Positions 3,649-27,568 of a DNA stretch of 30,000 bases are shown here, piece by piece. Every line of letters begins with the position of its first letter. Positions within the stretch are counted from its first letter, which is position 1. The notes beneath the pieces were generated by a model that was given only the letters and a program-made list of their open reading frames with translations, had not been told where the DNA came from and made no database searches. The translations under genes and the position numbers were made by a program. The stretch comes from Rhodocyclaceae bacterium (GTDB lineage Bacteria > Pseudomonadota > Gammaproteobacteria > Burkholderiales > Rhodocyclaceae): the NCBI GenBank assembly GCA_013791905.1, contig VMSX01000030.1, positions 74,741 to 104,740 of the forward strand. Reading direction: 5' to 3'.

Positions 3649-3658
3649 TGCTTTCGGA

Positions 3659-3806
3659 GCCTTGCCGCCGGGCCGCCCCAAGGCAAGGCGGCACGCGGCG
3701 CCAGCCGCAATCCGCACCCAAGCTTGAATGTGGACGTCCCGTAACAGACGAGCGCAGCGAGCAACAGTCACCTCTCCCGAGAGGGAGGGGCTGGGGGAGG
3801 GCGGGT
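3659..3806 (-). repeat. Structured intergenic repeat, type A, copy A1
   Basis: The plus strand reads GCCTTGCC-gccGGGCCGCCCCAA-GGCAAGGC ... GACGAGCGCAGCGAGCAACAGTCA-CCTCTC..GGGAGG-GGCTGGGGGAGGGCGGG. It fills the whole gap between the DUF58 stop (3807) and the tgpA-like start (3648). Strand is given as the sense in which the C-rich end comes first. Confidence 0.9.
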
Positions 3807-4781
3807 CTAATTTTCATAGAGCGCGAGCGCCTTGAGGCAGGCGTGGGTGTGCTCCGGGCCATGCGCCTGGGGGATATTGCCACCAGGCAAACGCAGGCCC
3901 CAGGACACTCCGGCGGCTTCGGTGTCGAGTACCCAGCGCGTCAATACCGACAGACGTGTTTCGACATCCATGCGCTGCGGCAGCATGTCCCAGTCGAGCC
4001 AGAGCGCCTGTGCAGCCGTGCCGGTGAACTGCTTGGTTTGCAATGGCGCCTCCGGACCTTGTCGCGCGACGGCTTTCCAGGCGACGTGGTGGGGCGGGTC
4101 GCTGGGCTGGTGACGCTTGAGGCCGGCAAAATCCTCATCGCCGCTGTCACCGGGCAGGAGCCCGCCTTCGATGCCACTGAAAGTCGGCGCTGGCGGGACG
4201 GCGCTGGCCGGTTGCGGATAAACCAGGCAGGTCAGGGCAGGCACGGCATAGCTCCAGGCGCGGATCAAACCCAGTGGCCAGAGCGTTTCAATGGTGACGT
4301 GCGGCATGGCGAGCCAGCCGCGATGCGTGGCGGGCTGCGGCAGCAGCACCCGTGCGCTGCCGCCCGGTGGCACGGTCATCGCCATGACCGCCTGTCCGGG
4401 CAGGAACAAGCGCAGCAGATGGCGTGGCCGCGGGTCCGGATTGTGCAGGATCAGCGGAAAGCGCGCGGTGTCGCCGGCAAATACCGGCAGGGCGGCGCCG
4501 ACGGTGATGGAGAGTCCGGCCTGGTTCCGAAAGGTATGCAGGATCGTGGCGACCCCCAGGCCGGCAAGCAGGAAGACCAGACCGTAGCCGAGGCTCAGGT
4601 TGTAATTGATCGCGCCGATCAGCATGACGATCAGCGACACGCCATACAACAGGCCGGCCCGACTCGGCAAGACATAGACGCGGCGCTGCGAGAGGACGAC
4701 GGGCACCGCTTCGGGTGGCCGCACGCGCAGTGCCCAGGCGGTGAAACGGTTGGATAGATTGCGACGCAGAGCAGGCAGCAT
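3807..4781 (-). CDS. DUF58 domain protein (the usual partner of MoxR/TgpA-type genes)
   Basis: Two N-terminal TM helices (LLYGVSLIVMLIGAINYNLSLGYGLVFLLAGLGVATIL). The DUF58-like core is DFAGLKRHQPSDPPHHVAWKAVARQG..LQTKQF. I prefer the start at ATG 4781 (MLPALRRNL). The track start at 4841 would overlap the divergent gene. Confidence 0.75.
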   Translation of the reverse strand: MLPALRRNLSNRFTAWALRVRPPEAVPVVLSQRRVYVLPSRAGLLYGVSLIVMLIGAINYNLSLGYGLVFLLAGLGVATILHTFRNQAGLSITVGAALPVFAGDTARFPLILHNPDPRPRHLLRLFLPGQAVMAMTVPPGGSARVLLPQPATHRGWLAMPHVTIETLWPLGLIRAWSYAVPALTCLVYPQPASAVPPAPTFSGIEGGLLPGDSGDEDFAGLKRHQPSDPPHHVAWKAVARQGPEAPLQTKQFTGTAAQALWLDWDMLPQRMDVETRLSVLTRWVLDTEAAGVSWGLRLPGGNIPQAHGPEHTHACLKALALYEN

Positions 4782-5497: not shown

Positions 5498-5665
5498 CGG
5501 ATTTCAGTTTATTGCAGCAGTCTCGCCGCCGGGCCGCCCCAAGGCGAGACGTCACGCGGCGCCAGCCGCAAACCGCGCCCAAGCTCGACCGGGGGCTCCC
5601 CGTGATAGTCGAGCGTAGCGAGCAACAGTCACCTCCCCGTGAGGGGAGGATGGGAGGGGCGGGCT
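5498..5665 (-). repeat. Structured intergenic repeat, type A, copy A2
   Basis: GTCTCGCC-gccGGGCCGCCCCAA-GGCGAGAC ... GTCGAGCGTAGCGAGCAACAGTCA-CCTCCCC-GTGA-GGGGAGG-ATGGGAGGGGCGGGC. It fills the convergent gap from the stop at 5497 and overlaps about the last 11-12 codons of the HicA-like gene. Confidence 0.9.
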
Positions 5666-5937
5666 CTTTCCGCTTCGTACGCCGATACGCTGATGCCGGC
5701 ATGGGTGAGGAATTCCCGCAGGTGCTTGATGTCCTGCCGGTTGAAGACGCTGCCCTGGTGTGGATGGTGCAGGAAGTATTCGTGGTGGTTGAGCAGCACG
5801 CGAAACCGCGCGCCATGCACCGGTTCGACCGATGCGCCGAGATGATTCAACAGCGACTCGATCTCCCTCCAGTGGATATTGGCGCTGACAGGTTCCTGAA
5901 ACAGACTGCGCAACAGATGCAGATGTTTATGGCTCAT
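5629..5937 (-). CDS. HicA-family toxin-like protein (orphan, no HicB partner seen)
   Basis: 102 aa from ATG 5937: MSHKHLHLLRSLFQEPVSANIHWREIESLLNHLGASVEPVHGARFRVLLNHHEYFLHHPHQ..DIKHLREFLTHAGI. This matches my recollection of the YcfA/HicA pattern (..I.W.dieaL...LGa......gs......g....fHrPHp....k..v..vr.fL...G). The track start at 6060 reads through repeat B1 and the tRNA. Confidence 0.6.
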   Translation of the reverse strand: MSHKHLHLLRSLFQEPVSANIHWREIESLLNHLGASVEPVHGARFRVLLNHHEYFLHHPHQGSVFNRQDIKHLREFLTHAGISVSAYEAERARPSHPPLTGR

Positions 5938-5940
5938 GAT

Positions 5941-6025
5941 CGTGCCTCCGTAGGGCCGCCCCCAAGGGGACACGCGCCCCCCTGTGGGGGCAGCGAGTCG
6001 ATGTTGCGAGCGTGGGGGGCCATTA
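5941..6025 (-). repeat. Structured intergenic repeat, type B, copy B1
   Basis: The plus strand reads CGTGCCTCC-gtaGGGCCGCCCCCAA-GGGGACACG, then GCCCCC-ctgt-GGGGGC-AGCGAG..TGTTGCGAGCGTGGGGGGCCATTA. It lies between the tRNA-Ser 3' end (6033) and the hicA-like ATG (5937). Confidence 0.9.
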
Positions 6026-6032
6026 TTTCTCC

Positions 6033-6122
6033 TGGCGGAGGTGGTGAGATTCGAACTCACGAACGCCTTGCGACGTTGCCGGTTTTCAAGACCGGTGCAT
6101 TCAACCGCTCTGCCACACCTCC
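6033..6122 (-). tRNA. tRNA-Ser (anticodon UGA)
   Basis: The 90-nt minus-strand sequence is GGAGGTGTGGCAGAGCGGTTGAATGCACCGGTCTTGAAAACCGGCAACGTCGCAAGGCGTTCGTGAGTTCGAATCTCACCACCTCCGCCA. Acceptor stem GGAGGTG/CACCTCC, anticodon stem CCGGT/ACCGG with loop CTTGAAA, long variable arm, T-arm GTGAG-TTCGAAT-CTCAC, encoded CCA. Confidence 0.95.
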
Positions 6123-6152: not shown

Positions 6153-6158
6153 ATTATA
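6153..6158 (-). promoter_or_regulatory. Possible -10 box (TATAAT) for tRNA-Ser
   Basis: The minus strand reads GGGCTATAATCGCGCC about 30 nt upstream of the tRNA 5' end, overlapping the stop codon of the YkgJ-like gene. There is no convincing -35. Confidence 0.3.
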
Positions 6159-14664: not shown

Positions 14665-15066
14665 CTAAGCGGCGCGCGGTTCTATGTGCGTGCGTAGCCA
14701 AGCGGCGAATTCGGCTTCCGGAAGTTCGCCGGCGGCGAGGTCCAGCATGGTGACGACGCACTCGGCATCTCCTGCAACCAGGTCGTAGCCGTTAAGCGCC
14801 AGAAACAGTTCAGTCGCAATTAGCGCAGTACGCTTGTTGCCATCGACGAAGGGATGGTTGCGGACGATGCCGAATCCATATGTTGCAGCGAGTGCGGCGA
14901 CATCGGGATCGTCATAGGCAGCAAGGTTCTCAGCCCGGGCCAACGCGGAATCAAGCAAGCCGGCGTCGCGGGTTCCCGCAGCTCCGCCATGCTCGGCCAA
15001 TTGTGCGCTGTGGGCGGCAATGATCACATTCCGTTGAATCCATACCCAGCGGCTCTCAAGAAACAC
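14665..15066 (-). CDS. doc: Doc (death-on-curing, Fic-fold) toxin
   Basis: ..RWVWIQRNVIIAAHSAQLAEHGG..GIVRNHPFVDGNKRTALIATELFLALNG contains the Fic/Doc motif HxFxDGNKR. The start is either GTG 15066 (MFLESRWVW) or TTG 15081 (track). Both lie within the hairpin of repeat B3. Confidence 0.85.
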   Translation of the reverse strand: MFLESRWVWIQRNVIIAAHSAQLAEHGGAAGTRDAGLLDSALARAENLAAYDDPDVAALAATYGFGIVRNHPFVDGNKRTALIATELFLALNGYDLVAGDAECVVTMLDLAAGELPEAEFAAWLRTHIEPRAA

Positions 15067-15142
15067 GCCGGGCCGTCCCAAGTGTTTCTTGGCCCCTTGA
15101 GGGGAGAACCGAGCGCAGCGAATGTTTGCGGGGTGGGCTCAT
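15056..15142 (-). repeat. Structured intergenic repeat, type B, copy B3 (most diverged)
   Basis: The plus strand reads CAAGAAACAC-gccGGGCCGTCCCAA-GTGTTTCTTG-GCCCCTTGAGGGG..GAGCGCAGCGAATGTTTGCGGGGTGGGCTCAT. It occupies the whole antitoxin-toxin junction. Confidence 0.8.
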
Positions 15143-21061: not shown

Positions 21062-21164
21062 GCCCTCGCAGGGCCGCCCCAAGAGGGCATGCGCCCCCCG
21101 TCACCGCTTCGGGTGATTTCATGGGGGGCAGCGAGCTGTTTATTGCGAGCGTGGGGGGCCATTA
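21059..21164 (-). repeat. Structured intergenic repeat, type B, copy B2
   Basis: The plus strand reads CATGCCCT-cgcaGGGCCGCCCCAAG-AGGGCATG, then GCCCCCC-(GTCACCgcttcgGGTGAt..)-GGGGGGC-AGCGAG..TTGCGAGCGTGGGGGGCCATTA. It fills the moaD-moaE junction. Confidence 0.9.
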
Positions 21165-26441: not shown

Positions 26442-26638
26442 CGCCGTCCAGCCAGCGCCGACTTTTCTGATTTAACCCTCCCCAACTGTAGCCTTGCCGC
26501 CGGGCCGCCCCAAGGCAAGGCGGCACGCGGCGCCAGCCGCAAACCGCACCGCTACCAGAACAAAGCTCCGCGTGATAGACGAGCGCAGCGAGCAACAGTC
26601 ACCTCCCCCGTGAGGGGGAGGATGGGAGGGGGCGGGGC
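26442..26638 (-). repeat. Structured intergenic repeat, type A, copy A5 (with flank extension)
   Basis: The plus strand reads CGCCGTCCAGCCAGCGCCGACTTTTCTGATTTAACC..GCCTTGCC-gccGGGCCGCCCCAA-GGCAAGGC ... GACGAGCGCAGCGAGCAACAGTCA-CCTCCCCC-GTGA-GGGGGAGG-ATGGGAGGGGGCGGGGC. It ends directly against the cysK stop codon (26639). Confidence 0.9.
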
Positions 26639-27568
26639 TTAGACTTCAAGATGCTGGTAGAGCACTGTCGAGAGATAACGTTCGCCAAACGACGGAATGA
26701 TGACGACGATCAGCTTGCCCGCGCTCTCCGGGCGCTTGGCGACTTCGAGCGCGGCCCATACTGCCGCGCCGGAGGAGATGCCGACCAGCAGGCCTTCCTC
26801 GGTCGCCATGCGGCGCGCGGTGGTCAGCGCGTCGTCGTTCTTCACGCGGATGGTCTCGTCGTAGATCTTGGTATTGAGGATGGCGGGCACGAATCCGGCG
26901 CCGATGCCCTGGATCGGATGCGGGCCGCGCTGACCACCCGACAGCACCGGGCTGGCATCGGGCTCGACGGCGATGATCTTGACCTGCTTTTTGGCCTTCA
27001 GCACTTCACCGACGCCGGTGATTGTGCCGCCGGTGCCCACGCCGGAAATGAAGATGTCGACCTGACCATCGGTGTCGCGCCAGATTTCCTCGGCGGTGGT
27101 CTTCCTGTGGATGTCCGGGTTTGCCGGGTTTTCGAACTGCTGCGGGATGAAGTAGCGCGCGTCGGCCGCCGCCAGTTCCTCGGCTTTCTTGATCGCGCCG
27201 GGCATGCCCTCCGGTCCGGGCGTGAGGATCAGTTCGGCGCCATAGGCCTTGAGCAGTAGTTTGCGCTCGCGGCTCATGGTTTCGGGCATGACGAAGGTGG
27301 CCTGGTAGCCGCGCGCCGCGCAGACCATCGCCAGGCCGATGCCGGTGTTGCCCGAGGTCGGCTCCAGAATGATGGTGTCGGGCTTGATCTTGCCGGCCTT
27401 CTCGGCGGCATCGATCATCGCCATGGCGATGCGGTCCTTGACGCTCCCCGCCGGGTTGAAGAATTCGAGCTTCAGCGCGATCGTCGCGCTGTTGTCGGCA
27501 TTCATGCGGTTGAGGCGAACCAGCGGCGTGTGGCCGATCAGTTCGATGATATCGTTCGCGATTTGCAT
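26639..27568 (-). CDS. cysK: Cysteine synthase A (O-acetylserine sulfhydrylase)
   Basis: 309 aa. Motifs: [21 protein letters not shown] (PLP lysine), [22 protein letters not shown]. Confidence 0.93.

Follow-up and report, generated by a model that had tools for sequence, protein, structure and literature searches.

A BRE-family repeat between a tRNA-Ser gene and a hicA-like gene: a possible MIRU-like translational relay

Introduction

Transcription units that join tRNAs to mRNAs are known from Escherichia coli, where thrU-tyrU-glyT-thrT-tufB forms a tRNA-mRNA co-transcription unit. The MIRU repeats of mycobacteria are described as inserting at start codons and as carrying an internal open reading frame (ORF) coupled at −4 (PMC12548453, PMC3184786). 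For BRE, a repeat described in Bordetella, no function has been proposed in the original description (Hot et al. 2011, BMC Genomics 12:207, PMC3110155), and in the literature searched the element is named only there. Here we analyse a window of 30,000 nt from a Rhodocyclaceae bacterium (contig C6:74741-104740 of the 3.64-Mb source genome G000, 60.8% GC), in which an 86-base repeat, B1, lies between a tRNA-Ser gene and a hicA-like gene. Sequence alignment identifies B1 as a type B copy of the BRE family. Comparison with relatives shows that it was inserted at the start of the hicA-like gene, and we see a somewhat better than even chance that it acts as a MIRU-like translational relay, ribosomes being passed on to hicA via a mini-ORF that spans the element. 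Positions refer to the window and features lie on the minus strand unless stated otherwise; further G numbers denote genomes of relatives, and L numbers related loci that were read.

Results

B1 lies between the hicA-like gene and its original Shine-Dalgarno sequence

The tRNA-Ser gene (anticodon TGA; 6033..6122; found by ARAGORN and matched by the Rfam tRNA family with 61.1 bits) ends in CCA at 6035..6033, and the minus strand then reads CCA-GGAGAAATA-ATGGCCCCCCAC. At this end stands AGGAG (6033..6029), followed by AAATA and the ATG of the repeat (6023..6021), so that the gap of 5 nt given in the initial annotation is correct. The ATG opens a mini-ORF of 29 codons (MAPHARNIDSLPPQGGACPLGGGPTEARS; 5934..6023) whose TGA (5936..5934) overlaps the ATG of the hicA-like ORF (5937..5935) as ATGA, again as first described. 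B1 itself occupies 5941..6026 (±~3 nt); it is recognised by the comparison of filled and empty sites, by its genomic matches and by alignment with Bordetella BRE.

Among the 20 loci read, the tRNA-Ser gene lies directly upstream of the hicA-like gene in 17; exceptions are found in G006, which has another gene there, and in G023, which has a tRNA fragment only. Nine species have 10-11 nt between CCA and ATGAGCCA (e.g., GGAGACCATC, GGAGAACATC, GGAGGGTCCC, GGGAGACATC and AGGAGGGCATC), five more have 18-23 nt between CCA and the hicA-like start, and a filled site, with the repeat in a spacer of 92-96 nt, is present in G000, G015, G016, G022 and G023. The empty sites, which read CCA-GGAGACCATC-ATGAGCCA or close variants in at least nine congeneric species, mark AGGAG (6029..6033) as the ancestral Shine-Dalgarno (SD) sequence of the hicA-like gene. 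On this comparison B1 is an insertion between the original SD and the coding sequence, common to five species, and the linkage of tRNA and hicA is older than the repeat. Two readings of the initial annotation are thereby revised: the connection of tRNA and hicA is ancestral and not due to the repeat, and the SD behind the CCA end lies outside the repeat, appearing in the empty sites as that of the gene. At 9 of the 20 loci (window 6029-6035; L037-L051) the hicA-like start lies 10-11 nt past CCA, and the SD mostly abuts CCA.

The junctions of the G015 orthologue (left, GGAGCA-ATCATG-G; right, ACG-ATCATG-A) suggest that a short stretch including the start codon was duplicated on insertion. At the left junction of G000 this copy is now ATAATG, and the 5′ ATG of B1 may be a duplicate of the native start. 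At other loci a duplicated ATGA or TGAA is followed by an ATG that the element itself has brought.

A single origin of B1 does not emerge cleanly. When the species are ranked by NrdJ identity to G000, the filled state is not monophyletic: filled sites are seen in G015, G016 and G022 (96-97%) and in G023 (90%), empty sites in G045 and G021 (95%). Precise loss or recombination seems more likely than a second insertion, because derived characters of B1, the GGAGGCACGATC arm and the loop end CCCTAC, recur in the G023 copy. At this G023 locus (L039; G023:C7, ~660.5 kb) the last ~15 nt of tRNA-Ser (caccgcttccgcca) precede the B1 orthologue, with AT-rich DNA further upstream; the remnant resembles a far att site, as left by an island that has integrated into tRNA-Ser.

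Upstream of the tRNA, a TATAAT box (6153..6158), read from the sequence, is the likely −10 element for the tRNA and everything downstream, and GCTATAAT is kept at the same position upstream of the tRNA in relatives. A consensus promoter scan did not call the box, owing to a weak −35 region. The 10-nt gap of the empty sites leaves no room for a promoter or terminator, so that co-transcription from the GCTATAAT box is the natural expectation. We found no terminator-like site between tRNA and hicA on the minus strand and no T-run after either hairpin of B1; these hairpins are not an intrinsic terminator.

Type B copies share a start/stop geometry with a mod-3 length rule

Alignment identifies type B as BRE: four Bordetella BRE, taken from the supplement of Hot et al. 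2011 as reverse complements, align with B1 and the B consensus with 38 invariant columns and in the same block order. B1 has 41-52 matches in G000, which holds ~41-55 type B copies. In alignment these are mosaics of 5′ (A)ATGG, CCCCCCACGCTCGCAAAcccGGCTCGCT, hairpin 1 (GCCCCCC-ACn-GGGGGGC) and hairpin 2, whose stem of 9-10 bp varies across the family and encloses the loop TTGGGGCGGCCCGGC.

Gene calls for the genome-wide survey came from our own simple and rather crude codon-bias gene finder (3321 genes, 89.5% of the genome). By these calls, type B copies lie co-oriented between co-directional genes in 40/45 cases, where chance would give 0.31-0.39 (binomial p 4e-12 to 6e-16). The upstream stop ends 1-10 nt before the GCCCCCC of the element (~0-7 nt before its ATG), and in 27 of 42 copies the downstream start is placed between −4 and +5 nt relative to the end of the hairpin. 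A start codon occupies the canonical 5′ position in 44 copies; its frame ends 5-25 nt past the loop, at the 3′ arm of the hairpin, in 38 of them, compared with 5/44 and 2/44 for the other two frames, and 25/44 end in ATGA. Where the start codon is ATG, the frame ends at the junction in 32 of 34 copies. The ATG...ATGA arrangement first noticed in three copies of the window is thus a property of the family and not due to chance, the element being a dispersed repeat, and the survey bears out the pattern genome-wide; the third of those copies (15056..15142) is of type C, not B. An SD-like tetramer precedes the 5′ ATG in 11 of 34 copies, as compared with 33% of called gene starts and 7.9% of random ATGs (p = 4e-5), and the 5′ ATG of the repeat looks like a real start.

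The B consensus is open in all three frames, and one frame-0 stop occurs among 48 standard-length copies where 2.6 are expected by re-mutating the observed variable sites (p = 0.24), so that the open 29-codon frame carries no statistical weight.

The length of the element is more informative. We measured how far the 5′ ATG lies from the first start downstream with an ORF of 60 codons or more, and call this distance D; a value of 2 mod 3 gives ATGA or TGATG coupling. Of the 60 copies from G000 and its relatives, 47 have a D of 2 mod 3, with ATGA at 36 of those 47. The same holds for 22 of 34 distinct architectures, each defined by body length and spacer length (p = 1.8e-4), and, when each value of D is counted once, for 15 of 27 (p = 0.014). 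The four different modules inserted within the element measure 12, 12, 21 and 24 nt, and bodies that are out of phase (52, 58, 82, 91 and 100 nt) are rephased by the spacer after the loop. In B1 (D = 86) the frame is restored because a C missing from hairpin 1 is offset by an extra G in the loop. That this rule holds across length variants speaks for selection acting on how stop and start are placed. In the copy B2 (window 21100-21122) and in at least 10 other B copies the loop of hairpin 1 contains a mini-hairpin module of 21 nt, ATGAAATCACCCGAAGCGGTGAC, with the frame kept.

At the orthologous locus the mini-ORF is intact in 5/5 species, ending in ATGA in three, 8 nt into hicA in one and as an in-frame fusion in one. 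The internal frames differ between orthologues, so the peptide itself cannot matter; the initial remark that it is not conserved holds and fits a role for translation itself, not for its product.

The SD-bearing hairpin 2 covaries across the family

Hairpin 1 of B1 (GCCCCC-ACAG-GGGGGC; 5976..5991), whose sequence is conserved across the family, folds alone with −16.9 kcal/mol (z = −2.7), and over 27 B copies its helix is 93% paired with hardly any variation. Hairpin 2 (5941..5974) comprises the left arm CGTGTCCCC (5974..5966), the conserved loop TTGGGGGCGGCCCTAC (5965..5950) and the right arm GGAGGCACG (5949..5941). The arms form seven Watson-Crick pairs and one G-U pair with one C/A mismatch, in agreement with the seven pairs and one wobble out of nine counted initially. 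The right arm contains an element-borne SD, GGAGG; its presence was recognised in the initial annotation, but the spacer that separates it from the hicA ATG measures 7 nt, not the 8 given there.

Folded alone, the hairpin 2 segment adopts exactly this arm-arm hairpin with GGAGG buried (−20.2 kcal/mol, z = −0.45). The minimum-energy fold of the full 119-nt leader pairs the C and G runs otherwise and is no better than shuffled sequences (z = −1.5). Thermodynamic support for the B1 fold is weak. Across the 27 B copies all 9/9 stem pairs of hairpin 2 have changed on both sides; 86.7% of cells are paired, 0/500 shuffles reach the score, and slid controls show ~50-58% pairing. An Rfam search returned no family matching type B and a single sub-threshold match to sX4.

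Types A to D share one loop and have expanded within one clade

With one mismatch allowed, the loop 12-mer occurs 262 times in G000, compared with 47 times for the reversed control. A stem is present at 238 of the 262 sites; by upstream module these include 126 of type A, 45 of type B, 28 of type C and 20 of type D. Among 41 relatives, 20 of the 24 genomes from the genus contain type B and 0/16 other families of the order do, and a scan of public genomes gave as hosts Sulfuritalea, Sulfurisoma and metagenome-assembled genomes of Rhodocyclaceae and Sterolibacteriaceae. The exact loop 15-mer occurs 175 times in G000, 185 in G015, 156 in G022, 133 in G016, 111 in G047 and 79 in G021, and 0-39 times (mostly 0-7) in other genus genomes, with 0 for the control. 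These counts show an expansion within one clade. Pairs of B copies ~80 nt apart occur at L097, L099, L102 and L124, and a D+B tandem in G000 contig C5.

Type A is co-oriented with the upstream gene in 118/126 cases, and the stop of that gene lies ~112-120 nt or ~71-77 nt from the hairpin; from these two fixed distances it follows that type A abuts or supplies the stop codon. The window holds type A copies at 3658-3808, 5498-5669 and 26490-26639 (plus-strand coordinates). The type C copy at 15056..15142 has the stem AAGAAACAC/GTGTTTCTT. Genome-wide, type C is co-oriented with genes in 12 cases and opposite in 11, whereas types A, B and D show a preference. Neither type A nor type C stems contain an SD.

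Some B copies form a subclass with TTG instead of ATG and with GTCGGC/GCCGAC as the stem, which always stands directly after the motif GCGCCGACTTT (G000 C4:90346, C1:242551, C25:72548 and C25:161472, with ~18 further copies in related loci). In this subclass GCGCCGACTTT is repeated as the right arm, an 11-nt duplication; the motif is part of another repeat and is also found inside genes. Type D (e.g., G000 C14:28237, C5:249734 and C27:56439) ends in GGAGGAACTATG, and its ATG is the start of the next gene. Three type D copies precede paralogous genes beginning MTLIPPAPFSKK, so that some copies have spread by gene duplication, not by insertion.

Target sites and candidate mobilisers

Beyond B1, ~20 further pairs of filled and empty sites were obtained. 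The longest string shared by the two flanks of a copy averages 4.84 nt, compared with 4.08 nt after permutation (p < 0.0005), and duplications range from 3 to 13 nt; the flank duplications are real. We considered whether the right arm might be a copy of the native target, the left arm acting like a guide, by comparing the sequence upstream of 23 empty sites with random gene upstream regions. The native sequence resembled the right arm no more than the random regions did (median percentile 0.47), so that this was rejected for SD-type copies, and the idea holds only for the subclass beside GCGCCGACTTT with its 11-nt duplication.

A 239-aa Y1 transposase-like (RAYT-type) gene lies at G000:C25:293915-294241 (L031 1147-1866), with inverted copies of GTAGCAGAAAACCGTGGTCTGACCCCGGTTTTCT on both sides. 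It is the only Y1 gene of G000, and no B-family loop motif was found within 1.5 kb of it. RAYT was rejected as the mobiliser because this gene is flanked by GTAG-tagged REPs of its own (GTAGCAGAAAACCGTGGTCTGACCCCGGTTTTCT), different from the B family, and because the genus distribution of Y1 genes does not track the loop copy number: G047 and G021, with 111 and 79 loops, gave no Y1_Tnp match, and G018 has four Y1 genes and 0 loops.

The hicA-like gene and its surroundings

The hicA-like ORF (102 aa; 5629..5937) matches the Pfam family HicA_toxin (PF07927) below threshold, with 20.6 bits for a cut-off of 27 (E = 4.9e-4) and 57 of 58 profile positions covered; NCBIfam and PDB searches gave no match for it. 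The gene is present in 38/38 genus genomes searched, a universal presence unlike that of a mobile toxin-antitoxin module. No hicB antitoxin gene adjoins it: upstream lies the tRNA-Ser gene, downstream the type A copy at 5498..5669 and then a convergent gene. This copy, a member of the same hairpin superfamily (repeat-search families D1-D3 and reading of the sequence), overlaps the hicA-like ORF over its final ~13 codons and its stop.

Discussion

A possible relay from the old SD to the hicA start

The proposed relay can be followed from the state before insertion. The hicA-like gene would then have begun 10 nt after CCA, with its SD (GGAG) abutting CCA; after insertion the old SD would serve the ATG at the 5′ end of the repeat. 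If tRNA and hicA are transcribed as one RNA, ribosomes would bind the old SD and initiate at the AUG of the repeat, and translation of 29 codons through both GC-rich hairpins would melt the stem and free the element-borne GGAGG. Termination at the UGA that overlaps the hicA AUG (AUGA) could then be followed by re-initiation there, aided by the freed GGAGG 7 nt upstream. As no translated gene lies upstream of B1, the relay would depend on the ancestral SD retained at the tRNA 3′ processing site. The repeat may have been tolerated, and may have spread, since such a design preserves expression of the gene that is hit. Whereas the insertion, the family membership, the start/stop geometry with its maintenance across length variants and the covariation of the stem are observed, what we infer is that hicA is co-transcribed with the tRNA, that the mini-ORF is translated and that ribosomes re-initiate.

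Several observations weigh against this proposal. The openness of the frame is indistinguishable from chance, with no depletion of frame-0 stops, and at the orthologous locus ATGA is kept in only 3/5 species. The geometry is mostly inherited from a master copy, so that the copies are not independent, and only the test on length variants addresses inheritance. In B1 itself occlusion of the SD may be weak, because hairpin 2 is imperfect and the leader fold is no better than shuffles. Finally, tRNA 3′ processing near CCA and the old SD could remove the ribosome-binding site of the mini-ORF from the mRNA.

Alternative explanations

B1 may instead be a neutral selfish repeat that survives by virtue of the GGAGG it brings along, in which case hicA would be translated directly from this GGAGG, at a workable 7 nt from the ATG, and translation of the mini-ORF would be absent or immaterial. 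The ATG...ATGA pattern would then be a by-product of insertion at stop/start junctions with a short target duplication, passed on by the master copy to its descendants. Native stops and starts are indeed recreated at both ends where short duplications of the flanks contain ATG, ATGA or TGATG, and both the undepleted frame-0 stops and the partial retention of the geometry among the orthologues agree with this explanation. What it does not predict is a distance of 2 mod 3 in 22 of 34 length architectures, including out-of-phase bodies compensated by their spacers, or insert modules of 12, 12, 21 and 24 nt; the polarity of 40/45 copies would in addition need selection at the level of RNA or translation. 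We regard a neutral repeat as unlikely, though as the most serious of the alternatives.

Two further explanations place the function in the RNA. That B1 serves RNA processing or stability, its hairpins acting on the tRNA-mRNA precursor, for instance as a site of cleavage by RNase III or RNase E or by blocking exonucleases, seems to us improbable. In this way the hairpins would set tRNA maturation apart from the hicA mRNA, or shield the new 5′ end of the mRNA; two stable GC-rich hairpins directly 3′ of a tRNA would suit this, as would the position of the related type A at gene 3′ ends in 118/126 cases, like REP-type stabilisers, and the overlap of BRE with small transcripts in Bordetella (PMC3110155). 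The mod-3 rule would be left unexplained, however, as would the start and stop codons that mark the ends of the element; most B copies follow protein genes, not tRNAs, and the hairpins, having no U-run, do not form an intrinsic terminator. More improbable still is a regulatory hairpin, in which the invariant loop TTGGGGCGGCCCGGC would bind a protein or small RNA, gate the SD stem and so co-regulate many junctions. Over ~240 copies the loop hardly changes, whereas the stems differ and covary, and the loop can be recognised even in Bordetella BRE as TTGGGCGGCCC; yet such conservation is equally expected if a mobilising machinery recognises the loop, the stems of types A and C have no SD to gate, and neither a candidate factor nor a matching Rfam family was found.

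Relation to BRE, MIRUs and other systems

A MIRU-like relay, if correct, would make type B a selfish repeat that survives within operons by relaying ribosomes, convergent with the solution proposed for mycobacterial MIRUs. B1 and the genome-wide census also give BRE, whose description of 2011 proposed no function, a testable one. Annotation of gene starts would need care, as many starts would lie inside repeats and some mini-ORFs would be fused to genes, and the 10-nt junction between tRNA and ORF would be a natural case of tRNA 3′ processing and translation initiation sharing one RNA. A bolder proposal, which we consider quite unlikely, is that type B BREs are an independently evolved betaproteobacterial counterpart of MIRUs built for insertion at start sites, with a 5′ start codon, a mod-3 length, a 3′ SD plus ATGA and an SD-hiding stem, and that the loop common to ~240 elements of types A-D is a handle for a predicted trans-acting factor, be it a mobilising enzyme or an RNA-binding regulator. 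If the factor were a regulator, it would tie together hundreds of gene junctions in these bacteria in a single post-transcriptional circuit.

Type B shares with published BRE the blocks CCCCCACGCT and GCT(C/T)GCTGCCCCCC-nn-GGGGGC, followed by stem, loop TTGGG(G)CGGCCC and stem, and both are ~75-91 bp long, multi-copy, chromosomal, mostly intergenic and restricted to Betaproteobacteria; type B, like BRE, may at times also stand in tandem. In contrast, the stems of the published Bordetella copies are T/A-rich, and these copies lack a terminal ATG, GGAGG or ATGA, so that they offer no bridging ORF. Hot et al. 2011 report no more than 29 copies per genome, whereas we count ~50 B copies and ~190 loop-sharing relatives, and here the element shows a strict polarity within operons.

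Co-transcription of a tRNA with a protein gene, as in thrU-tyrU-glyT-thrT-tufB, likewise involves a protein gene directly downstream of tRNA genes with no room for a promoter of its own; here, in contrast, the ancestral spacer is 10 nt, the SD abuts CCA, and the arrangement is common across the genus. REP/BIME elements with their RAYTs are also abundant, short, GC-rich intergenic hairpins built from mosaic motifs, and type A resembles them in lying at gene 3′ ends, but the conserved part here is the loop and not the stem.

A further likeness is to MIRUs (Supply et al. 1997, as described in PMC12548453 and PMC3184786). These too measure 40-100 bp, sit at operon junctions co-oriented with the genes and at start codons, and contain a small ORF that overlaps the neighbouring stop and start (−4); filled sites show short direct repeats, relatives have empty sites, and the element is thought to keep the downstream gene translated. 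MIRUs belong to another phylum, and by these descriptions type B is likened to them as an analogue, not as a homologue. Type B adds an SD-containing hairpin with a conserved loop and a covarying stem, and is a mosaic whose modules are common to types A, C and D. In B1, moreover, the upstream neighbour is a tRNA, so that, in contrast to MIRUs, the relay would start from an SD and not from a terminating ribosome.

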